Virus record (IMG/VR): IMGVR_UViG_3300029913_000003
Span: 1 to 64,000 of that record
Length of the DNA stretch: 64,000 nucleotides
Strand: one strand, 5' to 3'
From: a virus
In this document: piece by piece, positions 9,745-57,006 of the stretch
Layout of the letters: each line of letters opens with the position of its first letter
Position numbering within the stretch: the first letter of the stretch is position 1
Made by a program: the position numbers and the translations under genes
Notes under the pieces: generated by a model
What the model saw: only the letters and a program-made list of their open reading frames with translations
Databases searched by the model: none
Told to the model about the DNA's origin: nothing

Positions 9745-10143
9745 TTAATTTTTTATATCATTCCAATCAATATCATCACTATCTACATATTCATCAATTT
9801 CTTGGTTTCTATATTTGGAAATAATTTCTTGCCATGTTGGTTTAACTTTCCAAATACCAAGTATATTTATATAATCAGACCATTCAATGTGATTATCAAT
9901 ATCATAAACTTCTTCTCTATTTTCATTAACCCATTTAACATAATTAAATGCAAATGCTTGATCTGCAACAAAAAATCCAAGGTAAATTGCGAATATAGGT
10001 TTTGTGACTTTAAACACACCTTTATAATTTCTATCTTGATATTCTTGAAAAAGAATATAATCACCGAATTTTAATTGATTACAATTATCTGAGAAAGGAT
10101 TAAGTTTTTTCATAATTTTATATTTCAGTTTGTATTTTTGCAA
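9745..10143 (-). CDS. hypothetical protein (132 aa)
   Basis: ORF track. Confidence 0.5.
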   Translation of the reverse strand: MQKYKLKYKIMKKLNPFSDNCNQLKFGDYILFQEYQDRNYKGVFKVTKPIFAIYLGFFVADQAFAFNYVKWVNENREEVYDIDNHIEWSDYINILGIWKVKPTWQEIISKYRNQEIDEYVDSDDIDWNDIKN

Positions 10144-10300
10144 GTCCGTATCCTAAATATCCTCCTGATACACAGCATAATATAATTGTCAATATTATAT
10201 TATTCATTACAAATAAAGGATTTATAATCATAATTATAACTAATAATAACAATGTAATTATAGATATCACAAAAGGATAATATTTTTTTGCTTTTTTCAT
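10118..10300 (-). CDS. small membrane protein
   Basis: Two predicted TM helices. Confidence 0.45.
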   Translation of the reverse strand: MKKAKKYYPFVISIITLLLLVIIMIINPLFVMNNIILTIILCCVSGGYLGYGLAKIQTEI

Positions 10301-10305
10301 ATTTT

Positions 10306-10659
10306 TTATTTATAATTAACTTCTAAATAATGTTTTATACATTTATTTAATAATTCTGGATGAAGAATCTTTGCTGTTTGAATAGCGTCCATTTGCATTT
10401 CTGGCTTAGTATATCTTGCTAATGCCCAATCTATGTATGCTTCATATAAATCTTCATCTGTCTTTACATTGTGATGCCTTGCTATTCTTCTATGAATTTT
10501 AGATGCATTATAATCTCCTAAAATAAGAATAAGAATCATTTTTTCTAAATCGTGTTTAATTACTCTTAGCAATGAAACTTTTGTGGTTTCAGTCTTCCAC
10601 AATTTTAAAATTGCTATCTTATGTTTATATACTCTTTTAGATTCATCAAATCTATTCAT
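10306..10659 (-). CDS. hypothetical protein (117 aa)
   Basis: ORF track. Confidence 0.5.
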   Translation of the reverse strand: MNRFDESKRVYKHKIAILKLWKTETTKVSLLRVIKHDLEKMILILILGDYNASKIHRRIARHHNVKTDEDLYEAYIDWALARYTKPEMQMDAIQTAKILHPELLNKCIKHYLEVNYK

Positions 10660-10700
10660 AACTAAGTTTTTAATAATTAGAATACAAAGATAATAAAAAA

Positions 10701-10732
10701 AGTAGAATTAAATGAATAATTCTACTTTTTTA
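10701..10732. terminator. hairpin plus T/A-run intrinsic terminator
   Basis: agtagaatt / aattctact stem flanked by A-run and T-run. Confidence 0.55.
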
Positions 10733-10751
10733 ACTGTTATATTATGTTAAT

Positions 10752-11051
10752 TTAATCAAATAAATTTTCAGATGTCAATTCAGAGTCATCTCCATTTTCT
10801 GATGCTTCTTTACCATATCTAATTTGATTACTATTTTTAGCTATTTTCCAAGCTTCTTTTCTATAAACAAAATTTCCTTTTGATGTTAAAAATCCTTGCT
10901 CTTTTCTATTTGGCTCATGAAATTTAGTAGAGTTACAAGAAATTTCAATTTTATTTAATGAATCATAACAATCATTATGCCTTCTACCACAAACTATTAT
11001 ATCATCAAATTTAATTGCTGAGCATAATATATATTCTTTATCTTCCATCAT
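10752..11051 (-). CDS. hypothetical Cys-containing protein
   Basis: ORF track. Confidence 0.45.
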   Translation of the reverse strand: MMEDKEYILCSAIKFDDIIVCGRRHNDCYDSLNKIEISCNSTKFHEPNRKEQGFLTSKGNFVYRKEAWKIAKNSNQIRYGKEASENGDDSELTSENLFD

Positions 11052-11267
11052 TAAACTATTATACCATTTAATATCATAATATTTTTATATTTGTTAAAGT
11101 CAAGTTTTTGACGAATTATTTCACATTTTTTATTATATTCTTTAAGTGTTTTTGCGCCTTCGTCTACACACTGATAATGAGTTTGTACAAGAATATCAAA
11201 TTCTAATTGAGCATTTTTAGCATCTTCACGTTTTTCTTATACATAAAGTACTAGTTCTTCTGTAGTT

Positions 11268-11385
11268 CCGTCAACTTAAACATGCACAAATTTGTACAGG
11301 AAGTGACGTTTGGATGTTGTTTGATAACATTCCTTGTCCGAACACACTATTCTTTATAAATTTAAAGAAATCGTAGTCGCATTTA
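11268..11385 (-). ncRNA. putative omega-RNA (reRNA) scaffold region at TnpB 3' end
   Basis: ~118 nt at the 3' end of the TnpB ORF is repeated at 28386..28508; hairpin with conserved loop ATCAAAC kept by compensatory stem changes. Confidence 0.4.
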
Positions 11386-12728
11386 ATTTTAACTGGATTA
11401 CACAGTTTAAACATATAATTTTTCAGCCATGAAAAATCATTATTTTTGTTTGATTTTTTAATATGATTAACTGCACCATTTAAATCTGCATTCATTGTTT
11501 TATTTATTAGTTTGTCTGTAAACAATCCACGTTTAGAACGAACACCATTTAGTTCTTTATCTAACGGATTATTAACATCATCACTAACACAAGAACACTT
11601 GGAAGTGTAGGCTTCGTTAATTATATCTACTTGAATTCCAACTTCATTACTTTTATATTGAATGTAATCCAATAATTTAATGAAAGGAATCTGTATGAAA
11701 TTTTGTTTTACTTTATTATTTAATTTGCAGTCACCATTATATTTTAAGCTAGCTAAATTATATGATATGGTTAGGTTTGTTACTGAATTTAATTTCAAGA
11801 ACTCAACTACCCTTTTACTTACTTTATGAAACTGATCATAAAAATAACGATTCCTCTTTTCATAAAGAAATGTCTTATACTTCCTTAATTCTATTCCTCT
11901 TTGAGTCCACTTGGAAGCATATTTAATATTATTTTTACTTAAACTATATTCTATTACTTCGTTAGAAATTGATTCATTTAATTTAGCTATAAAACGATTG
12001 AATTTTGAGTTATAAGTCTTAAAGTGATTTCCATCTACAATAATTGATTTAGATTTTTTATCATCAATAAATATTGCAAGCAAATTATTGACTCCAACAT
12101 CAATCCCTGCTTCTTTTATGTTCAAATTACTATTTAAAATATCTTCAGTTAAATAGTTCAAGTGTAAATAAATTTCTTTGTTTGAGTAAACTATTTTAAG
12201 GCTTTGAATGTTTTTTGGTAGAAATTCGTGTTTGAAATCAATGTAAAACATTTTATTACTTAAGTTAATTCCAATTTTATCTTTTTTCTTGAAGGAAAAT
12301 GCAATTTGATCAACTAAAATTGAATATTTTGTTACCAAGAATAGCTTTTTAGCACTGGGTGTATTTGCCTTAACTTTTTGTTTGATTTTAGTGAAAAATG
12401 CTTTATAACTTACTTTAACTCTCTTAATCAAATCAGAAATATTATGAATTTTAAGACATTTAGATAAACGAATCAACTCAATCATTTTATCATAATTTTT
12501 ATATTTATCTTTAATAAACTTTACTTTGTCTTTTTCCAAACCGCCAGCAGTTTCAGCAAGAACTGCTCTCATGACTTTATAGTTAGAAAGTAAATTAAAA
12601 TCTTCTTGGTTTTCCTTCAATATTATAAGGTATAAGTTTTCGAAGTGACGATATTTGAAAATATAATCACTCATCATTTTTTTATATTTATCTTCTTTAA
12701 TGTGTATTATGAAGGTTCTATTATTCAT
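11271..12728 (-). CDS. tnpB: TnpB / Fanzor-like RuvC-fold RNA-guided nuclease (IS200/IS605 OrfB family)
   Basis: RuvC-I GIDVGVNN, RuvC-II INEAYTSKCSC, RuvC-III NADLNGAVNHI; 485 aa; no adjacent TnpA. Confidence 0.8.
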   Translation of the reverse strand: MNNRTFIIHIKEDKYKKMMSDYIFKYRHFENLYLIILKENQEDFNLLSNYKVMRAVLAETAGGLEKDKVKFIKDKYKNYDKMIELIRLSKCLKIHNISDLIKRVKVSYKAFFTKIKQKVKANTPSAKKLFLVTKYSILVDQIAFSFKKKDKIGINLSNKMFYIDFKHEFLPKNIQSLKIVYSNKEIYLHLNYLTEDILNSNLNIKEAGIDVGVNNLLAIFIDDKKSKSIIVDGNHFKTYNSKFNRFIAKLNESISNEVIEYSLSKNNIKYASKWTQRGIELRKYKTFLYEKRNRYFYDQFHKVSKRVVEFLKLNSVTNLTISYNLASLKYNGDCKLNNKVKQNFIQIPFIKLLDYIQYKSNEVGIQVDIINEAYTSKCSCVSDDVNNPLDKELNGVRSKRGLFTDKLINKTMNADLNGAVNHIKKSNKNNDFSWLKNYMFKLCNPVKIKCDYDFFKFIKNSVFGQGMLSNNIQTSLPVQICACLS

Positions 12729-12750
12729 TCAATTACTTGATTTTATTGCG

Positions 12751-12780
12751 TATTATATATAAATATTTAATAATTGTTTA
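12751..12780 (-). promoter_or_regulatory. AT-rich promoter-like repeat upstream of tnpB
   Basis: 25/30 identity to 13301..13330; both ~25-35 nt upstream of minus-strand starts; contains TATATAAT. Confidence 0.3.
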
Positions 12781-12956
12781 ATTTATTTACACTTTTTTAT
12801 AGTTTTGTTTAAATTTTTTGTAACTGAATCTAACCTCTTGCTCTTATGCTTTTAGCTTCACCATATTGACTATTTTCATCACCACTTGAATATGAAAAGC
12901 CAATTTCTTTTATAAATTCTTCTGTGAAAATTTTTAACATAACTTTATATTTTTAA

Positions 12957-13268
12957 TTATATAATATTATTATCAACGCACCAATTATTAAATAATTTTT
13001 CTAACGATGGTTCAATTTTAAAAAATATAGTGATAGGTAATTTATCTATAACCATATTTTGATAATATTTATCTAAAAAATTCAAATTCTTTTGAATTTG
13101 TGATTTAGTCATATCAATATCTTTACATCTATTAAAATATTTAATAAATGGTGATTCTAAATCAAAATATGCATATACATCAGCTTGTTCCATAATTGAT
13201 ATTTTAAATATTAATAATAAATTTGAATACAAAGATAATACATTATTTTTATATACTAAAATGTGCAT
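12957..13268 (-). CDS. hypothetical protein (103 aa)
   Basis: ORF track. Confidence 0.45.
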   Translation of the reverse strand: MHILVYKNNVLSLYSNLLLIFKISIMEQADVYAYFDLESPFIKYFNRCKDIDMTKSQIQKNLNFLDKYYQNMVIDKLPITIFFKIEPSLEKLFNNWCVDNNII

Positions 13269-13300
13269 ATAAAATAATATAATTTTTTATTGTTATTTAA

Positions 13301-13330
13301 CATTATATATAAATATGTAATAATTTTGAA
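13301..13330 (-). promoter_or_regulatory. second copy of promoter-like repeat
   Basis: cattatatataaatatgtaataattttgaa, upstream of 12957..13268. Confidence 0.3.
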
Positions 13331-13404
13331 TGTTTTTGCTCTAAATATTTGGTAGATTTAAAAAAATGTAGTATTTTTGCTAATTGTCATAATAAAATAA
13401 AACT

Positions 13405-13734
13405 ATGATTTATATATTAATAATTTATTTGTTTGGATTTTTATATATTCCAAAAACATTACTCAATAAAACTGAGCCAGAAAAACTAAAATCAAAAGAT
13501 TATATCATTTTCAATGGTCAACAATCATATATGAAATGCCTATTATATTTTTTTGTTTTTAATTGGATTTGTTTTTTATTTTTAAATAAAATAAGAGAAA
13601 TGAGAAAAATAGATTATTATAAAGATGTTATTGATAGTTGGAATAAAAGTTATGGATTTGAAAATCTTCATGATCAAACTAAATTAGATTATATTAGAAT
13701 CAGTAGATATATTAAAATTAAAAAACTAAAATGA
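13405..13734 (+). CDS. family C small membrane protein (TM + FLFLNKIREMRKIDYYK + RYIKIKKLK tail)
   Basis: Shared motifs with 13731, 21406 and 21755 genes. Confidence 0.55.
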   Translation: MIYILIIYLFGFLYIPKTLLNKTEPEKLKSKDYIIFNGQQSYMKCLLYFFVFNWICFLFLNKIREMRKIDYYKDVIDSWNKSYGFENLHDQTKLDYIRISRYIKIKKLK

Positions 13735-14069
13735 TACAGATCATACCATTTATATTTCTTATAATATATTTTACAAGTTTTTCATACATGCCTTATATTT
13801 TAGACAAAAAAACTAAACCAAAAGGAAATGACGGACTTATTGAAACTAAATACAATGTATTATTTTGTTTTGTTAATATTTTTTGTTTTTTATTTTTGAA
13901 TAAAATTAGAGAAAAAAGAAAAATAAATTTTTATAAAAATAGAATATTACATTATGATCAAAACTTTATAAAAATTTTTGGTTTTGAATCATTATCACCT
14001 GATGGTAAATTAGATTACAATAGAATGAAGAGGTATTTAAAACTTAAAAAAATAAATGAAAAATCATAA
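13731..14069 (+). CDS. family C small membrane protein
   Basis: ATGA overlap; FLFLNKIREKRKINFYK. Confidence 0.55.
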   Translation: MIQIIPFIFLIIYFTSFSYMPYILDKKTKPKGNDGLIETKYNVLFCFVNIFCFLFLNKIREKRKINFYKNRILHYDQNFIKIFGFESLSPDGKLDYNRMKRYLKLKKINEKS

Positions 14070-17965: not shown

Positions 17966-18513
17966 TATCGGAGATAAAATTGTTTATATTGTATATGAAA
18001 ATAATTTATCTTTTTATGAGTATCCGTTTGAGTGTTTTAAATATAGTGTTTTATTGTTAATTATTTAGCATGTGTTACTTGTCAACCATCTCTTTATTAG
18101 TTAACTACGTACAACTCTCAATTTTAACTTGGGGATTAATTAAAACATAAGAAACAACTCCATAGTAGTTGATCAGAACAATCAACCACGTATGCTTTAT
18201 TTTAGTCTATCCTAATTGATGACCCATACAATCAAATTTTATAACTATATAAATAACAAGACATTACTAATATTAAATAGATAAAGCGAATCAACATAAA
18301 TATATATATTAAGATATCCAAACGGATACTCATATATCTTTTTATGATGATTTTTTTAAAAAATATAACACGTATACGATAGTTCAAATTTTAAATAATG
18401 GTATTACATTTGGACTAGGAATTAAAGAGATAGGTGGTTATTACTCATCAAATTATTTCATAACTTTAAAAGAATATAGAAAATTAAAACTTCAAAAATT
18501 AGAATTGTTATGA
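17952..18513 (+). pseudogene. family A gene split by a MITE insertion
   Basis: MCKFNIGDKIVYIVYENNLSFY | 320-bp insert | DDFFKKYN...ITLKEYRKLKLQKLELL*; removing insert plus one TSD copy restores the frame. Confidence 0.6.
18015..18334. mobile_element. MITE-like non-autonomous element with 16-bp TIRs and 8-bp TSD
   Basis: TIRs TATGAGTATCCGTTTG / CAAACGGATACTCATA perfect; flanking direct repeat TATCTTTT at 18007..18014 and 18335..18342; no ORF inside. Confidence 0.7.
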
Positions 18514-18757
18514 TAACTAATATAAATAAATATGATAAAGTAGTATATATTTTGGTCATGATGGTAAAATTAGTCAGTCTAAATTTATCTATGGTAATAT
18601 TTATACAGTAACAGGCTACTTTCGATCTTATATACCAGAATTGTCTTATATAACTACAGATGAAATAGAAAATTTTTATATTTATCTTAATTTTTTTATT
18701 ACATTAAAAGAATATAGAAAATTAAAACTTCAAAAATTAGAATTATGTTTAGAGTAG
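18510..18757 (+). pseudogene. family A pseudogene, frameshift in a T-run
   Basis: MITNINKYDKVVYIL.. then frame switches to ..HDGKISQ...ITLKEYRKLKLQKLEL. Confidence 0.5.
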
Positions 18758-18954
18758 GAGAAAAAATAGTTTATATAAAGCAATCATATACTGGACTTAA
18801 ATTAGCATCAATTCATATTATAAAAGATATTAGATTTGATACTAGTATATCATTAGAAGATTCTTATAAAAATTGGTGGTTTTCATCCGAATGTTTTATA
18901 TCACTATCTGAATATCGAAAACAAAAACTTAATGAATTAAAAAAAATATCATAA
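18745..18954 (+). CDS. family A small protein (MFRVGEKIVYI ... LSEYRKQKLNEL)
   Basis: ORF track. Confidence 0.55.
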   Translation: MFRVGEKIVYIKQSYTGLKLASIHIIKDIRFDTSISLEDSYKNWWFSSECFISLSEYRKQKLNELKKIS

Positions 18955-22962: not shown

Positions 22963-23033
22963 GCTCATTTAGTCCAGTGATAGGGCGGTAGCCTCTAAAA
23001 CTACCTACATCGGTTTGAATCCGATAGTGAGCA
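22963..23033 (+). tRNA. tRNA with anticodon CUA (amber-reading / suppressor-type), hand-folded
   Basis: Acceptor GCTCATT/AGTGAGC; D-stem GTCC/GGGC; anticodon stem GTAGC/ACTAC with loop CTCTAAA (U33, A37); T-arm ATCGG-TTTGAAT-CCGAT; discriminator A; 71 nt. Confidence 0.65.
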
Positions 23034-23070
23034 CAAATATATTTTTCATAAGGTATATTTATTTTTAAAA

Positions 23071-28508: not shown

Positions 28509-28615
28509 TATACCTATTAATATATCAACCATGTGGATTAATCATGATATGAAAGTTATCATAAAAAAAGATTTAGTTGGAAGTAAATTAAGAAAAAGAA
28601 AATTATTAAAAATAA

Positions 28616-28840
28616 ATGAAAATAGGAGATAAAGTTTTATTTACTGATTATTTTTATGAACATCATAAATATATAACAGATAATAGATATAATATTTTTA
28701 CAATCAAAGATTATTTTAGCGATAATTTCACCATTATTTCTTTATATGAACTTCCAATGTATTATTTTGAACCAAAAAATTTAATAACAGTATCAGAAAT
28801 TAGAAAAAAAAAATTAAAAAAATTAAAAATATATGAATAA
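28616..28840 (+). CDS. family A small protein (MKIGDKVLFTD ... VSEIRKKKLKKL)
   Basis: ORF track. Confidence 0.55.
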   Translation: MKIGDKVLFTDYFYEHHKYITDNRYNIFTIKDYFSDNFTIISLYELPMYYFEPKNLITVSEIRKKKLKKLKIYE

Positions 28841-29914: not shown

Positions 29915-30208
29915 ATGAAAGAGCACAATCACAATAATGATATTAATTATAATGCTGTTATTGAACAATGTGGTTTAATATTATATAAAAAGAAAGCAAT
30001 AGGTAATAAAGCAAGATTATTGTATATAATTCAAGCAAAATCTGGTAGATATGATCATCAAAGTATTATTATAATAAAAGAAATTAATAAAGATTTCATA
30101 AAAATAAATGATTCTAATGATATAGAATCAAAATTATATGAACCAGATAGATTACTTTATAACCAAATAAAAGAATATATAATAGAAGCAAATTATGAAT
30201 ATAGATAG
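29915..30208 (+). CDS. hypothetical protein
   Basis: ORF track. Confidence 0.45.
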   Translation: MKEHNHNNDINYNAVIEQCGLILYKKKAIGNKARLLYIIQAKSGRYDHQSIIIIKEINKDFIKINDSNDIESKLYEPDRLLYNQIKEYIIEANYEYR

Positions 30209-31217
30209 AAAATTAGCAACAATTCAGGTAATTAAAGACATATTACCAATTAAAGGAGCAGATAGAATAGAGGTTGCACGCATAAAAGGTTGGAAAGTAG
30301 TAGTTAAAAAAGACGAATTTAAAGTAGGTGACAAAGTTGTTTATTTTGAAATTGATTCACTATTACCTATTAGAGAAGAATTTGAATTTCTTAGAAATAG
30401 TTCATATAGAAAAACTGATGAACAAGAAGGTTTCCTCTTGAGAACGGTCAAATTACGCAAACAATTTTCATGTGGACTAATAATGTCATTAGATATTTTA
30501 AATGATACACCTTGTCATATATTTAAATTGACAGAAGGTGATGATGTATCTGATTATCTAAATGTTGTAAAATTTGAAGTTCCAATACCTGATGAACTTA
30601 AAGCTGATGTTGTTGGTCCTATTCCTTCATTCATATTGAAGACAAATGAAGAACGCGCACAAAATTTATCTGATGATTTCGATGAATGGAAAAAAGATAA
30701 TGTAATATTCTATGAAACAGAGAAACTTGATGGTCAATCTACCACTATGTATTTACATAATGGAGTATTTGGCGTGTGTGGTAGAAACTGGGAATTTAAA
30801 AGAAATCCAAATAATTTATTTTGGAAATTTGCAATTGAAAATAATATTGAAGAGAAATTAAGAATATATGGTAAAAATATTGCTGTTCAAGGTGAATTAA
30901 TTGGTTCAGGAATAGAAGGCAATAACTATAAATTAAGCCATAAAACAATAAAATATTTTAGAGTTTTTAATATAGATGAATATAAATTGGAAGATTATAA
31001 TACATTCGTTGATATTGTAACTAATGTATTAAATGCTGACACGGTTCCTTTAATTTGTAGTTATTATAAATTACCTGGCACTATTGATGAAATATTAAAA
31101 CATGTTGAAGGCAAATCTGTATTAACAAATTCATCAAAAAGGGAGGGAAGTGTATTTAAATCAATTGATTCATCAATAAGTTTTAAGGTCATTAACAATG
31201 AATATTTAATTAATTGA
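30195..31217 (+). CDS. ATP-dependent RNA ligase (Rnl5/DraRnl-like: N-terminal OB/tRNA-binding fold plus nucleotidyltransferase)
   Basis: N-terminus IKGADRIEVARIKGWKVVV..VGDKVVYFE resembles OB tRNA-binding fold; ligase motif I ETEKLDGQS (KxDG); 340 aa. Confidence 0.5.
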   Translation: MNIDRKLATIQVIKDILPIKGADRIEVARIKGWKVVVKKDEFKVGDKVVYFEIDSLLPIREEFEFLRNSSYRKTDEQEGFLLRTVKLRKQFSCGLIMSLDILNDTPCHIFKLTEGDDVSDYLNVVKFEVPIPDELKADVVGPIPSFILKTNEERAQNLSDDFDEWKKDNVIFYETEKLDGQSTTMYLHNGVFGVCGRNWEFKRNPNNLFWKFAIENNIEEKLRIYGKNIAVQGELIGSGIEGNNYKLSHKTIKYFRVFNIDEYKLEDYNTFVDIVTNVLNADTVPLICSYYKLPGTIDEILKHVEGKSVLTNSSKREGSVFKSIDSSISFKVINNEYLIN

Positions 31218-40885: not shown

Positions 40886-40907
40886 GGATGAATAAATTAT
40901 AAATAAT

Positions 40908-40931
40908 ATTTGCAATTTGCAAATTGCAAAT
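40908..40931. repeat. perfect 24-bp palindrome ATTTGCAATTTGCAAATTGCAAAT
   Basis: Self-complementary; starts an ORF-free 700-bp region holding the tRNA-like cluster. Confidence 0.6.
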
Positions 40932-41206
40932 TTAAAAATTTTATATATAGTTTATGATTGTGAGTTATTAATTTAACTATCAATTAATTAAGTTAGAGAA
41001 GCTTAACGATTTATTATTTACGTAAAAAATGATACTGATTGTGCTATAGTTTAATAGTGCTAAATGGATAAGGAATAACCAATTCCCCCATTTTAGGTGA
41101 CTTTTTTTAATTCAGTAAGACGATTAAGTTGTTTTTTTCAAAGTAAAAAAACATTGGTTACATCTATTCATTGTATTCTCAGGTGGAGATAGCTAGGTGG
41201 CGGAAA

Positions 41207-41288
41207 GGTTAGACGTTTGGGTAAAAGTCCCATTAGTGAGGTAGCTCAAAGATTATTTCTTATATAGGTTCGAGTCCTATCCTAACTA
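41207..41288 (+). tRNA. tRNA-like gene with canonical T-arm; body does not fold as a standard 76-nt cloverleaf
   Basis: T-arm ATAGG-TTCGAGT-CCTAT; acceptor GGTTAGA/CCTAACT (6/7); D-arm TGGG-TAAAAGT-CCCA; anticodon arm unresolved. Confidence 0.35.
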
Positions 41289-41298
41289 CATTTAAAAA

Positions 41299-41359
41299 TG
41301 AAAAGACGGATCTAAGCCAAAAAAGCATTAGTATGTGGGTTCAACTCCCACATTTTCAC
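41299..41359 (+). other. tRNA-like fragment (T-arm plus acceptor-like ends; too short for a full tRNA)
   Basis: GTGGG-TTCAACT-CCCAC; TGAAAAG/ATTTTCA ends; 61 nt. Confidence 0.25.
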
Positions 41360-41375
41360 TAAATAATATTAATTA

Positions 41376-41468
41376 AAGAAAGTAAGTCAAAAGGTCAGAC
41401 TAGTAAAGCCAAAAAAGCGTTTATATAAAAAATATTCATTTATGTTGGTTCGAATCCAACCTTTCTTT
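41376..41468 (+). tRNA. tRNA-like gene with canonical T-arm and D-arm plus ~20 extra nt (possible intron)
   Basis: Acceptor AAGAAAG/CTTTCTT perfect 7 bp; D-arm AGTC-AAAAGGTCA-GACT; T-arm GTTGG-TTCGAAT-CCAAC; anticodon region not canonical. Confidence 0.4.
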
Positions 41469-41635
41469 CAAAAATTTAAAAATATGAAATCACATACTCA
41501 AAAAAATAATTTTTTATTTAACTGAAAAGTTTGTGATGATGAAAAAACTTTTTTTGAATTTTTGAAATAATAATAAAATATTGAATTTTTTATTTGGTTA
41601 ATCCATAATATAGTTGTATCTTTGTAAGCTATATT

Positions 41636-41893
41636 ATGGATTTATTAATTTATATTATGAAACAAGGGGATAAAGTAGTTTGTATATGTAACACAAGAGG
41701 AGCCTTTATGGGGAGTCCAAGATTATATGTAGGTAAAACATATACAGTAAAAGATTATCATATGGTAGGATTTTCTGCAAATTTTATATGTCTTGATGAG
41801 CATCCACAATATTCATATACAGAAAAAGATTTTATAACTCAATCTGAAAATAGAAAAAATAAGTTAAATAAAATAAATAAATGTATAATATGA
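41636..41893 (+). CDS. family A-like small protein (MKQGDKVVCIC ... ENRKNKLNKI)
   Basis: ORF track. Confidence 0.5.
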   Translation: MDLLIYIMKQGDKVVCICNTRGAFMGSPRLYVGKTYTVKDYHMVGFSANFICLDEHPQYSYTEKDFITQSENRKNKLNKINKCII

Positions 41894-47934: not shown

Positions 47935-48120
47935 AATATTAATTCAATTGATGCGTTCACTCGTAATTTGCCATTATTTAAGCCTTTGCATGTAGTATCT
48001 AATGATCAATTTAGAATTGAATTTAAAGAATATAAAAATAGGTTATATTATAAAAACCGTCATATATTTATTACACCATCTGAATATAGAAAACTTAAAT
48101 TAAATAAATTAAATAATTAA
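47935..48120 (+). pseudogene. N-terminally truncated family A-like copy (no start codon)
   Basis: Open frame ..FKPLHVVSNDQF...PSEYRKLKLNKLNN* with no ATG. Confidence 0.4.
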
Positions 48121-48330
48121 ATCTGGCGATATATTAATTTGTACTCAGCATAATTCAAGTTTTGGGTTCACTAACACTAACTTAAAACTTTTTACTCCAT
48201 TGCATGTTAAACATTTAAAATATGGAGATACATTTGAATTTTATGAATATCCAGGTAAAACTTATATATCTGAATATCACACTTTCATAAAATTATCTGA
48301 TTATAGAAAACTTAAATTAAATAAATTAAA
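48121..48330 (+). pseudogene. family A-like copy with ATG>ATA start-codon loss
   Basis: IIKSGDILICTQHN...LSDYRKLKLNKLNDKTW*; aligned start of intact neighbour is ATGATAAAACCTGGTGAT. Confidence 0.4.
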
Positions 48331-48566
48331 TGATAAAACCTGGTGATATATTAATTTGTACTCATAATAAAGAAGGTTCAAGTAAAATTGAACTTTTCAA
48401 ACCTTTACATGTTAAACTAACAACAAATGATGATCATTTTTTTGAATTTGAAGAATTTGAAAATGTTGCATACACCAGTAATTATCATATTTTTATAAAA
48501 TTATCTGAATATAGAAAACTTAAATTAAATGAATTAAATGAAATCTCAAATAAAGAAATTTATTGA
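48330..48566 (+). CDS. family A-like small protein (MIKPGDILICTHN ... LSEYRKLKLNEL)
   Basis: Intact copy of the unit found decayed twice upstream. Confidence 0.55.
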   Translation: MIKPGDILICTHNKEGSSKIELFKPLHVKLTTNDDHFFEFEEFENVAYTSNYHIFIKLSEYRKLKLNELNEISNKEIY

Positions 48567-49241: not shown

Positions 49242-49331
49242 TATTATTATTTAACTTTTAAGATACTACATATACCAAATATATGTGGTATCTTTGTATT
49301 TGAAATTTTTAAACAATTAAATCATATTATT

Positions 49332-49535
49332 ATGAGTACAATGTTAATATTATCAGTATTTTTAGGAATTATTTCTGTTATTTTTTTTGGATTTGCATTT
49401 CTTGGTAAATCAAATAGATTAATGATGTATATTATTGGATGCTTATTCTTTTGTGCTAGCATGATTTTTATGCATGAATATTCTGATCATGTAAAATGTA
49501 ATAATTCTAAATTAGAGTATTATATTAAAAAATAA
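49332..49535 (+). CDS. small membrane protein
   Basis: Two TM helices. Confidence 0.45.
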   Translation: MSTMLILSVFLGIISVIFFGFAFLGKSNRLMMYIIGCLFFCASMIFMHEYSDHVKCNNSKLEYYIKK

Positions 49536-49589
49536 ATTATTAGAGTATTTTTATTATAACTTCATGTTATTCATTTAGTGAAATAACAA

Positions 49590-49780
49590 CAAGAGATAAA
49601 CAGGTTTGGTGAGGTTATGAAATAATATTTGTAAACCGAAGTGGAACTAAGATGCCATTGAAAAAAGTTAGTAAGTTCGGCGCAGGACTAAAAAGATTAC
49701 AAGGTCTAAGTTAGAGAGGGATCCAAGAAAGAACTGAACTATGCCATAGTAGAAATAAATACCTGTAATAATTTATAAAA
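49590..49780 (+). ncRNA. candidate structured small RNA (GC-enriched island ending at a terminator)
   Basis: ~190 nt with no ORF, locally higher GC than surroundings, nested inverted repeats (CCGAA..TTCGG), ends at hairpin 49781..49808. Confidence 0.3.
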
Positions 49781-49808
49781 AGTGAATGATTAATCATTCA
49801 CTTTTTTT
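49781..49808. terminator. intrinsic terminator
   Basis: agtgaatgattaatcattcact then tttttt. Confidence 0.6.
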
Positions 49809-49873
49809 GCGTATATAATAGTTATATAACATAAATTTAATATAATTTTAATAGTAAATCATCTAATAATATA

Positions 49874-50608
49874 GTGAATATTAAATATATAATAATAAAA
49901 AATATGGAAATAGAAGCACTTTTTATATCAGATGTGCATCTTGGTACAAAATATACAAAAGCTACTGAATTATTAGAAATATTAAAATATTATAAGCCAA
50001 AAAAATTATTTTTAATAGGAGATATCATTGATGGATGGGCGTTAAAAAAGAAGCATTACTGGAATCAAGAACAAACAAATGTAATTAGAAAAATTTTATC
50101 ATATTCAAAAAATGGAACAGAAATATATTACATATCAGGAAATCATGATGATTTTTTAAAACATTATATATTTGATTTTGGTAATATTCATATAATATCT
50201 GAAATGATATGGAATAATTGTTTAATTACTCATGGAGATAAATATGATACTGTAGTTATGAATAATAAATGGATTGCTCATTTGGGTAGTATTGGTTATG
50301 ATATCGCTCTTTATTTAAATAAATATATTAGTAATATTAGAAAATTATTTGGTTTAGATAAAAAATCTTTCAGTAAATGGTTAAAAAATAATGTAAAAGA
50401 AGCTATCAATTTTATATACAAATTTGAAGAAATTTTAATAACAGATACAATAAAAAAAGGTTGTGATACTGTAATTTGCGGTCATGTTCACACTCCTGAT
50501 GATAAAATTATAAATAATGTAAGATATTTAAATACTGGTGATTGGATTGAAAATTGTTCATATATTATATATGATAAAAATAAATTCACTTTAAAATATT
50601 ATGATTAA
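49874..50608 (+). CDS. LpxH-like calcineurin-type metallophosphoesterase
   Basis: FISDVHLG ... LIGDIIDGW ... ISGNHDDF ... THGDKYD ... CGHVHTP. Confidence 0.6.
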   Translation: MNIKYIIIKNMEIEALFISDVHLGTKYTKATELLEILKYYKPKKLFLIGDIIDGWALKKKHYWNQEQTNVIRKILSYSKNGTEIYYISGNHDDFLKHYIFDFGNIHIISEMIWNNCLITHGDKYDTVVMNNKWIAHLGSIGYDIALYLNKYISNIRKLFGLDKKSFSKWLKNNVKEAINFIYKFEEILITDTIKKGCDTVICGHVHTPDDKIINNVRYLNTGDWIENCSYIIYDKNKFTLKYYD

Positions 50609-54717: not shown

Positions 54718-55656
54718 ATGAAAAAAGATAAAAAATTAGTCATATCTTGTGGATTACCAGCAGCAGGTAAATCAAGCATCATTGAAAAATATGTTGATTA
54801 TAAATGTACATTACTATCAAGAGATATTGAAGGAGATACATTAAGTTCTCTTAATAAAAAACTTGAACAATTAATGTTAGATGGCGTGGATATTGTATTA
54901 GATGGAACATATTCAACTAAATTATCTAGGGCTGATGTTATTGAATTAGCAAAAAAATATAATTATTATATATTATGTATTCATTTTACTACAAAAATTG
55001 AAGATTGTATGTTCAATCAGGTAACAAGAATGATAAGAAAATATGGTAAATTATTCACAGAATTAAGTGAATATTCTAACTCTAATGATCCACATATGTT
55101 TCCTGTTGCTGCACTTTATAAAATTAATAAAAATTTTGAAGCACCTGAATTATCAGAAGGTATTGATGATATAGAAAAAATAGATTTTAAACGTTATTCA
55201 TCAGAATATAAAAATAAAGCAATTTTATTTGATTATGATGGTACATTGAGATTAACTAAAAGTGGTGAACATTATCCAACTGATATTAGTGATATTGAAA
55301 TAATTCCAGGTAGAACAGAAAAACTTTTAGAATTACAAAGTCAAGGTTATATATTACTTGGAGTTTCAAATCAAAGTGGAATAGCAAAAGGATTATTATC
55401 TAATGATACAGCAATAGCTTGTTTTGAAAAAACAAATGAAATGCTAGGAGTTAATATTGATTATAAATATTGTGGGCATTCAGTTCCTCCAATAACTTGC
55501 TATTGTAGAAAACCAGGAGTTGGACTAGGAATAGAATTTATTGAAAAATATAAACTTGATCCATCTCAATGCATAATGGTTGGAGATTTAACAAGTGATA
55601 AAACATTTGCTAAAAGATGTGGATTCAAATATATTGATGCTGCTAATTTCTTCTAA
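54718..55656 (+). CDS. polynucleotide kinase / 3'-phosphatase (T4 Pnkp-like: P-loop kinase plus HAD phosphatase)
   Basis: Walker A SCGLPAAGKSS; HAD motifs LFDYDGTL, GVSNQSG, VGDLTSD; domain order as in T4 Pnkp. Confidence 0.6.
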   Translation: MKKDKKLVISCGLPAAGKSSIIEKYVDYKCTLLSRDIEGDTLSSLNKKLEQLMLDGVDIVLDGTYSTKLSRADVIELAKKYNYYILCIHFTTKIEDCMFNQVTRMIRKYGKLFTELSEYSNSNDPHMFPVAALYKINKNFEAPELSEGIDDIEKIDFKRYSSEYKNKAILFDYDGTLRLTKSGEHYPTDISDIEIIPGRTEKLLELQSQGYILLGVSNQSGIAKGLLSNDTAIACFEKTNEMLGVNIDYKYCGHSVPPITCYCRKPGVGLGIEFIEKYKLDPSQCIMVGDLTSDKTFAKRCGFKYIDAANFF

Positions 55657-56283: not shown

Positions 56284-57006
56284 ATGCCAAAAATTTATGA
56301 AGTGGGCGGATGTGTACGTGACCGTATCTTAGGAGTTGATTGTAAAGATATAGACTTTACTTTTGTATTGGATGACAAGAATCAATCAGTTGAATCTGGA
56401 TTCATGTCAATGGACTTGTGGTTACGTAAAAATGGCTACACCGTATATAATTCAACTCCAAGATGTTTCACAATCAAAGCAAAGTTTCCAAAAGGACATA
56501 AGCATGAAGGGTTAACTGCAGATTTTGTAATGGCTAGAAAGGAAATTGGTTATTACGAAGGAACAAGACGTCCAATTTTAGAACTTGGTACACTTGAAGA
56601 TGATTTAATCAGACGTGATTTCACATTGAATGCTATGGCACTTGATGAAGATGAAAATTTGATTGATTTATTTGATGGAGTAAAAGATCTTAAAATGGGT
56701 ATTCTTAGAACGCCAAGACCTTGCCAACTTACATTTGATGAGGATCCATTACGGATTTTACGTTGTGAGCGTTTTTGTATTACAAAAGGTTTCAGAATGA
56801 CTGATGATATTGAAGTTGCTATTAAAAATTATGATTATGAATCAAAAATGCAAGTAGTTTCAAATGAAAGAATTCAAGATGAACTTACCAAGTGTTTTAA
56901 ATTTGATACATTAAAAACAATTTTGATGTTGAATGAATTTCCTGAATTGAGAGATTATGTATTTAATCATACTAAGATGTGGTTGAAACCATCATTTCAA
57001 AAATAA
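56284..57006 (+). CDS. tRNA nucleotidyltransferase (CCA-adding / poly(A) polymerase) head-domain protein, Pol-beta superfamily
   Basis: N-terminal YEVGGCVRDRILGVDCKDIDFTF matches class-II GGxVRD...DxD; only 240 aa. Confidence 0.55.
   Translation: MPKIYEVGGCVRDRILGVDCKDIDFTFVLDDKNQSVESGFMSMDLWLRKNGYTVYNSTPRCFTIKAKFPKGHKHEGLTADFVMARKEIGYYEGTRRPILELGTLEDDLIRRDFTLNAMALDEDENLIDLFDGVKDLKMGILRTPRPCQLTFDEDPLRILRCERFCITKGFRMTDDIEVAIKNYDYESKMQVVSNERIQDELTKCFKFDTLKTILMLNEFPELRDYVFNHTKMWLKPSFQK

Follow-up and report, generated by a model that had tools for sequence, protein, structure and literature searches.

A conserved GC-rich module without open reading frames, a candidate small RNA gene, in an AT-rich giant phage genome

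The stretch of viral DNA analyzed here (positions 1 to 64,000 of IMG/VR virus record IMGVR_UViG_3300029913_000003; hereafter the window, 64,000 nt) carries at 49590-49808 an island that lacks open reading frames (ORFs), is richer in GC than its surroundings and ends in a hairpin with a T-run, and the question it raises is what kind of element it could be. A reading of the sequence alone had proposed a small structured RNA of ~190 nt or, failing that, a cis-acting leader for the LpxH-like gene that follows. We find that the island belongs to an ORF-free, GC- and purine-rich module of ~245 nt plus a terminator hairpin, set in the genome of an AT-rich giant phage, and that this module, present once in the window and with sharp boundaries, is conserved non-coding DNA that has outlived replacement of the genes on both sides. 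Two members are known of this candidate RNA family, an orphan within the known category of phage small RNA (sRNA) candidates. Judging from sequence, we put the chances at about even that ~49533-49808 is a portable non-coding cassette giving rise to a weakly structured, purine-rich, trans-acting sRNA.

Between 49536 and 49873 there are no ORFs of at least 30 aa on either strand, which takes in the whole of the interval first noticed as ORF-free (49590-49780). The relative poverty in AT was also borne out: GC content within 49585-49774 reaches 0.37–0.39 against a window mean of 0.214 (sd 0.057, 120-nt windows), and the core, 49599-49752, is 37% GC in a genome of 21.4% GC. Of the window's 16 ORF-free segments that reach 100 nt, the island ranks second in local GC, after the tRNA-like cluster at 40886-41635 and before the stretch directly 3′ of the tRNA at 22963-23034; that the other top GC-rich ORF-free segments of the genome are tRNA genes supports an RNA gene here. 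The island body contains 40% A, 24% G, 24% T and 12% C, and is thus 65% purine with twice as much G as C. On its + strand G exceeds C and A exceeds T, as on the sense strand of + strand genes, which the composition resembles more than it does that of a compact RNA. The element is bigger than the ~190 nt originally proposed, with a conserved unit that begins at 49533, immediately 3′ of the stop codon of the upstream ORF.

A second copy of the module lies in L068, a 326-kb contig found via a 132-aa protein encoded further upstream in the window, the relatives of which are 65–73% identical. Five further contigs are identical to L068, which equals IMG/VR UViG_3300029983_000007 (330 kb). L068 10878-11165 matches window 49528-49807 at 84% over 288 nt (E = 3e-85), and the two genomes are syntenic on both sides of the locus at 74–86% DNA identity. 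The genes that adjoin the module are different: the order in the window is ORF67, module, LpxH-like gene and GT2 gene, and that in L068 is an unrelated 126-aa ORF, the module and then, all on the − strand, a 70-aa ORF, TnpB and radical SAM genes, with both LpxH and GT2 absent from the 20-kb L068 locus. Over 49533-49776 the copies are 86.5% identical (211/244, with 4 gap columns), and identity is 51% in the left flank (27/53) and 53% in the right flank (36/68), the spacer at 49809-49903 being unrelated to the DNA 3′ of the module in L068 (53% identity). The onset of similarity coincides exactly with the stop codon in which the two unrelated upstream genes end, and past the hairpin similarity is lost. 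Because the island has been kept in two related phages despite swapped neighbors, it is probably a small phage RNA gene. Self-BLAST and motif searches showed that the module is unique in the 64-kb window. The blocks CGAAGUGGAACUA, GAUGCCAUUGAAAAA, CGCAGGACUAAAAA and AAAUAAAUACCUGUAAUAAUUUAU are invariant between both copies. The island also contains an imperfect direct repeat, GAAGTGGAACTAAGATGCCAT (49641-49661) and GAACTGAACTATGCCAT (49730-49747), and the ATGCCAT cores of both units are kept in L068.

To put a scale on this conservation, identity across nine orthologous gene pairs of the window and L068 is 0.755, 0.817 and 0.670 at codon positions 1, 2 and 3, respectively; the module is kept to roughly the same degree as second codon positions (0.82), and far better than third positions (0.67). 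Elsewhere, the non-coding columns that can be aligned have an identity of 0.787, and gap columns exceed them in number. Identity at 211 of 244 positions has a binomial P of ~3e-12 against a baseline of 0.67 and of ~8e-6 against 0.75. GC is 0.34–0.37 in both lineages versus 0.10–0.20 in the non-coding background, and ORFs of at least 40 aa cover 91% of the window.

The differences between the two copies are those of non-coding DNA. All 33 in the module are spread 14/10/9 over the three phases, with no codon periodicity. The sole frame open in L068 begins at ATG 49652; in the window it comprises 20 codons, TAG (49712-49714), 17 codons and TAATAA (49766-49771), and in L068 TAC takes the place of TAG to give an intact 38-codon ORF (MPLKNDSKFVAGLKKLIGLSYRGIQKRTEVCHFINKYL; 52 codons from stop to stop). 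That this frame encodes a micro-protein, with the window TAG perhaps read through by a phage tRNA(CUA), we regard as improbable. The ATG and the double stop are common to both copies, the window encodes a suppressor-type tRNA with anticodon CUA (22963-23034), and the weak codon-usage score of the island is positive and highest in this frame. Yet the 20 differences within it fall 5/9/6 on codon positions 1/2/3, with ~2 synonymous, which is opposite to the pattern in real genes of these phages, and they include radical replacements (V to D, G to V, Q to I, S to F, R to I). No TAG recoding is seen elsewhere in the window, where TAG ends 9 of 105 ORFs and where reading TAG or TGA as sense yielded no ORF fusion. 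Pfam holds no family for the translated frame, tblastx of the island against relatives was negative, and phmmer with a 33-aa frame against 1.84 billion proteins returned two repeat-protein matches only, with E-values inflated by the repeats in the matched proteins and a best single alignment of 24 bits. A frame with at most one stop over ~50 codons is, moreover, expected by chance (rough estimate 0.1 per frame). Because the changes in the frame are mostly amino-acid-altering and often radical, and because there is no Pfam match or credible homolog, the constraint, as read from these sequences, is on nucleotide sequence rather than on protein.

The module is closed by an intrinsic terminator in which 49777-49789 pair with 49794-49806 ahead of seven T residues (pair probabilities 0.9–1.0; −13.4 kcal/mol), so that the hairpin and T-run first noticed are confirmed and are strong. 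Its L068 counterpart is 72% identical (23/32), yet folds as a 14-bp hairpin with a T-rich tail and carries a symmetric 2-nt insertion, one in each arm; by this comparison the predicted terminator is preserved by structure, not by sequence. It is the sole supported structure of the element. Upstream of it we infer a discrete transcript, together with its strand, its 5′ end and a role in trans. The proposed cassette lies in the variable accessory-gene part of a phage genome of >340 kb with T4-like genes. Transcription would proceed rightward, either from a promoter in the AT-rich 5′ segment (49533-49598), which may hold a promoter or the 5′ part of the putative RNA, or by read-through from the upstream gene, which is possible since no terminator stands between ORF67 and the module. 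The + strand is favored because the T-run of the terminator is stronger on that side, because the left end has no terminator for a − strand RNA and because the skew is sense-like. Ending at 49777-49808, the product would be a purine-rich RNA of ~210–270 nt, mostly single-stranded and with at most a few short hairpins, that would act in trans by pairing with pyrimidine-rich target RNAs or by binding protein; it would not be a compact riboswitch, ribozyme, housekeeping RNA or LpxH leader. In an alternative form it would be an sRNA derived from a 3′ untranslated region (UTR) rather than the product of its own gene. The invariant A/U-rich block beside the terminator resembles, by analogy, the chaperone-binding or seed modules of terminator-ended sRNAs; this block has no second copy and no antisense match within the window.

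Searches for known families and for further copies were negative. With Rfam at gathering thresholds, the whole window gave no match except two tRNAs elsewhere, and at E values up to 10 the region 49400-49950 and the L068 copy gave chance-level matches only, driven by the terminator or by AT content, with HrrF scoring best at 19.3 bits against a threshold of 77. ARAGORN called neither a tRNA nor a tmRNA at either copy of the locus (window and L068), and no T-loop motif was apparent on reading. These negatives agree with the first impression, gained by eye, that no known consensus core is present; Rfam assigned the island to no known family, be it 6S, SRP, RNase P, tmRNA, YrlA, a riboswitch, a ribozyme or a phage RNA already described. 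BLASTN of the island against 50,697 phage records gave no match. Exact and degenerate DNA pattern scans of IMG/VR returned only chance matches in high-GC coding DNA, or L079, which is identical to L068; a pattern scan of JGI metagenome contigs found no island copy; and a scan of GTDB genomes found one chance 20-mer, at the apparent 5′ end of gyrB in an actinobacterial metagenome-assembled genome of 52% GC. Neither a single sequence nor a two-sequence profile, run with nhmmer against ~0.5 Mb of related loci, revealed a further copy.

Several specific classes were tried and rejected. As a miniature inverted-repeat transposable element (MITE) the region would offer a 27-nt 'terminal inverted repeat' (49532-49558 with 49750-49776) that is 74% complementary, AT-rich and weak. 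Readings as tRNA-like, T-box, signal recognition particle or boxB elements were dropped after inspection of the sequence by eye, and a CsrB-like RNA was set aside on finding three GGA motifs versus ~3.8 expected from base frequencies (rough estimate). A TnpB omega-RNA or IS200-IS605 derivative (PATE) was rejected: the island is not similar to the TnpB locus at 10000-14000, and tnpB is 37 kb away in the window. For the RNA of a type III toxin-antitoxin system (ToxI-like), no direct-repeat family was found at seed 6, and the downstream gene is a metallophosphoesterase, not an endoribonuclease toxin, and is absent in L068.

A number of results weigh against an sRNA gene of the kind proposed. Relative to dinucleotide shuffles, the minimum free energy of the island body without the terminator has z = 0.00 on the + strand and 0.10 on the − strand, and that of the whole region including the terminator reaches only −1.3. 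For the core, the consensus fold of the two copies gave z = −1.29 (p = 0.09) on the + strand and −1.20 on the − strand when compared with column-shuffled alignments. The nested inverted repeats of the sequence-only reading exist as strings, but by the z values of the body they are no more than chance. Of the 5 pairs of the inner ACTAA/TTAGT stem, 2 are lost in L068, as are 3 of the 6 in the closing stem ACAGGT/ACCTGT, which is favored by the single-sequence fold. Two neighboring pairs of candidate hairpin H1 (Table 1) have changed in a compensatory way in L068 (G-C to U-A, U-A to C-G), which alone is not significant, and in the CCGAA/TTCGG helix that had been pointed out earlier, an alternative to H1, the outer pair C49636-G49680 becomes A-U with pairing kept. 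RNAalifold on the two sequences also gives two invariant 5-bp hairpins (49640-44:49655-59 and 49674-78:49685-89) and a long-range AU-rich helix (49707-19:49762-75), and all substitutions outside its compensatory pairs are at unpaired positions. When the 24 substitutions were placed at random, at least two compensatory pairs arose in 14% of trials and at least three helix-preserving double changes in 12%; the three compensatory events in L068 are accordingly not significant (null P = 0.12–0.14), the built-in shuffle control of the covariation tool being uninformative with two rows. With no thermodynamic signal, no significant covariation and no Rfam match, the description as a structured RNA is unsupported. 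What is kept of that description is a small RNA ending in a terminator, and conservation in a second lineage supports it.

Results of other kinds fall on the same side. A complementarity search within the 64-kb window found no target beyond chance, and sigma-70 rules identified no promoter conserved in both copies, phage-specific promoters being outside such rules. The island is absent beside LpxH in relatives at 73–77% identity, the only place that could be checked on short contigs. Third-position identity in one neighboring gene is 0.83, a baseline on which 86.5% would not be significant; the genomes being mosaic, the excess could therefore partly reflect younger shared ancestry and not selection. 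There are two distinct sequences only, and more recent exchange between co-occurring phages could be partly behind their conservation.

How do other explanations compare? A cis-acting leader or riboswitch that controls the LpxH-like gene via the terminator is highly improbable. The layout would suit it, with a GC-rich segment, a terminator and the gene ~95 nt on, but the L068 module precedes convergent unrelated genes and no LpxH, four LpxH relatives at 73–77% identity (L018, L019/L020, L021 and L022) have no island upstream, and the island is found at none of the LpxH loci compared for synteny, eleven from IMG/VR, 27 from metagenomes and eight on assembly contigs. The module is independent of LpxH, and the proposal of a leader is refuted by L068 and the LpxH relatives. 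No anti-terminator complement to the terminator arm was seen on reading the sequence, and there is no aptamer family match and no conserved, covarying aptamer fold (z = 0.0; consensus z = −1.29). In L018 and L021 the order is an unrelated gene, a long AT-rich hairpin with a T-run, a promoter-like spacer and the LpxH-like gene (in L018, hairpin and spacer were recognized by inspection of the sequence). Window 49768-49846 aligns with L021 1120-1199 (74%, E = 3e-6), there too between the hairpin and the LpxH-like gene, so the hairpin and LpxH promoter region are apparently common to L018 and L021 and the island is an upstream addition. The spacer that is common to L021 and, by inspection, to L018 is downstream of the hairpin, and these sequences suggest a start of LpxH transcription beyond the terminator.

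It is unlikely, although credible, that the module works as DNA, in recombination or regulation: with the flanking hairpin and promoter-like elements it would be a homology anchor for accessory-gene swaps in a hyperplastic region, a role proposed for the PeSLs of T4-like phages, or else a protein-binding DNA site; conservation would then be due to recent exchange or to selection on the DNA itself. The neighbors differ on both sides, the module is kept, as is the T1 hairpin region (49242-49321; 84–85% identical between window and L068), identity between both genomes is mosaic, the hairpin and promoter-like spacer recur in L018 and L021, and PeSLs are small composite terminator/promoter motifs beside indels and replacements (PMC4122927). 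However, PeSLs are short and many per genome, whereas the module is ~245 nt plus a hairpin and occurs once in the window; a homology anchor needs no GC- and purine-rich, strand-asymmetric core; and the palindrome ACTATGCCATAGT is not kept in L068. It is also unlikely that the island is a relic, that is, foreign or formerly coding DNA that the common ancestor of both phages acquired, that is transcribed only as a passive 3′ UTR and that has yet to decay. Its GC is like that of conserved protein genes of the window, its composition is sense-strand-like, no structure signal, family or third lineage was found, and the closest LpxH relatives lack it 5′ of their LpxH-like gene. Decay is hard to square with 86.5% identity and almost no indels, compared with third positions at 67% and gap-filled spacers, or with a GC content held in both lineages far from the non-coding background; the translated sequence is similar to nothing found, and the genome is tightly packed.

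Two bolder versions are a long shot even taken jointly: a portable promoter-to-terminator RNA gene that acts on the host and that moves or persists without regard to its neighbors in accessory regions of huge AT-rich phages, or a 38-aa peptide that serves as a timing switch, its synthesis in the window phage depending on TAG read-through by the suppressor tRNA of the phage itself. A host-acting RNA could be, for example, a decoy or sponge against RNA-targeting defense, or a take-over sRNA, and would fit the surrounding RNA-repair and tRNA genes. In large environmental phages, functional non-coding RNAs have hardly been explored, as most such RNAs come to light only through transcriptomics in model phages. 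As the locus illustrates, an island of deviating composition within a very AT-rich phage genome can reveal conserved non-coding DNA that persists while its neighbors are replaced; if transcription is confirmed, it would provide an orphan sRNA candidate with two natural variants for study. Two cautions apply: in this instance a folded RNA could not be read from GC enrichment and visible inverted repeats, nor could regulation of a gene be read from lying next to it.

The features discussed are collected in Table 1. The window has dense short ORFs, many of which overlap by 4 nt in operon-like runs. Taken together, its genes, which include the T4 gp30.3 family, the RNA-repair set of Table 1, a cREC_REC domain, a vault-shoulder-like protein and TnpB-like, ankyrin and leucine-rich repeat (LRR) proteins, indicate a tailed phage of very large size that has T4-like elements, and identical sequence occurs in bog and peat metagenome contigs of up to 346 kb. 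A Shine-Dalgarno-like motif is missing from the 20 nt upstream of all 105 ORFs that reach 80 aa, and start regions are A/T-rich, which suggests a host without Shine-Dalgarno-led initiation.

Table 1. Coordinates of the module, its parts and other features (window numbering unless a contig is named).
Feature	Coordinates	Strand	Basis or comparison
Upstream ORFan ORF67, outside the conserved module	49332-49535	+	Unrelated 126-aa ORF instead in L068
Conserved AT-rich 5′ segment of module	49533-49598	+	57/66 (86%) identical to L068
GC-rich (0.37), purine-rich (0.65) ORF-free core	49599-49752	+	130/154 (84%) identical to L068, gapless
Candidate hairpin H1, 23-nt loop	49603-49608 with 49632-49637 (49603-49637)	+	RNAalifold
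CCGAA/TTCGG helix, alternative to H1	49636-49680	+	Shares C49636 and C49637 with H1
AT-rich block adjoining terminator	49753-49776	+	24/24 identical to L068
Intrinsic terminator: 13-bp stem, 4-nt loop, T7 tail	49777-49808	+	Folding and L068 comparison
Promoter-like spacer 5′ of LpxH-like gene, outside module	49809-49903	+	Alignment to L021
Recurring hairpin/spacer sites	Window 49260-49294, 49777-49903; L018 2180-2386; L021 1131-1252; L068 10421-10455		
RNA-repair/tRNA-maintenance genes	30195-31217, 54718-55656, 56284-57006, 61890-63539 (−)		cREC_REC protein elsewhere in window

Next to the module, ORF67 has zero homologs among 5.8 billion protein clusters and, by reading, apparently comprises two hydrophobic segments and a charged C-terminal tail (holin-like topology). 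In a third lineage, L074-L076, DNA that is ~70% similar occupies the ORF67 position, and the contigs stop before the island. The closest cultured-phage match of the LpxH-like protein is in Pelagibacter phage Mosig (141 kb). Gene-replacement junctions repeatedly carry a long, AT-rich perfect hairpin with a T-run and, after it, a promoter-like spacer; these units are PeSL-like and are kept between relatives (84–85% for the region after the 132-aa gene). TnpB-like genes (OrfB_IS605 plus Cas12f-like TNB) are present at 11271-12728 (−) in the window and at 11534-12994 (−) in L068, 83% identical and at different loci. Likeness between the two copies stops at the ORF borders, being lost within ~20 nt of them, so that the gene seems to be mobile by itself; the GC-richer ORF-free flanks, 11052-11270 and 12729-12956, might hold a guide RNA and element ends.

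The tRNA at 22963-23034 (+) has the anticodon CTA, which reads amber UAG, and is labeled 'Pyl' by ARAGORN. A non-canonical tRNA-like cluster at 41180-41470 (+), inside the ORF-free stretch 40886-41635, contains an Rfam tRNA at 41376-41468 (41.4 bits) with a 27-nt intron-like insert in the anticodon-loop region that ARAGORN missed, a second tRNA at 41191-41288 (28.8 bits, just below the threshold of 29) with a long variable arm, and a T-arm-like remnant at ~41300-41359. The RNA-repair and tRNA-maintenance set consists of an RNA ligase, a polynucleotide kinase/phosphatase, a CCA-adding enzyme and a fusion of PPK2 with a SAK-type ('Swiss-army-knife') HAD domain. A small paralogous ORF family with the C-terminal motif EYRKLKL(N/Q)KL occurs at 47968-48566, 18380-18760, 28560-28830 and 41636-41893, and some copies look degraded, lying in ORF-free stretches that still contain the motif. 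An 817-aa protein (2531-4984, +) combines a major-vault-protein shoulder and repeat domains with SPFH/Band-7 (MVP_shoulder E = 5.5e-29), an uncommon protein in a phage; four ankyrin-repeat ORFs and one LRR ORF are present in the window as well.

Phage T4 encodes stable small non-coding RNAs of unknown function, rnaC and rnaD (species 1 and 2 RNAs), which lie inside a tRNA gene cluster and are processed from a tRNA precursor. Compared with these by description only, the module shows no tRNA-like features and is separated by 8 kb from the tRNA-like cluster (41180-41470). PeSL and PmSL elements are composite terminator-promoter cassettes of T4-like phages (PMC2839356, PMC4122927), and PeSLs have been described for hyperplastic regions of these genomes (PMC4122927). 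The locus is like a PeSL in its hypervariable accessory region with T4-like genes, in conserved non-coding DNA at gene-replacement junctions, and in a stem-loop followed by a promoter-like AT-rich spacer that is common to L018 and L021. Unlike the short, multi-copy PeSLs, the 245-nt GC-rich body is single-copy in the window and lies 5′ of the stem-loop, and therefore only the hairpin and spacer, 49777-49903, are PeSL-like. The Hfq-associated lambda sRNA LPR1/PreS is a phage-encoded, terminator-ended sRNA (bioRxiv 10.1101/2024.10.31.621285). The module is longer and more purine-rich than typical sRNAs and, by Rfam, has no similarity to any sRNA described. It is like terminator-ended base-pairing sRNAs in its size range, in having no ORF, in being phage-encoded, in a largely unstructured body and in an A/U-rich stretch directly 5′ of a Rho-independent terminator with a U-tail, and, like 3′-UTR-derived sRNAs, it would have its 3′ end in common with the transcription unit of the upstream gene.

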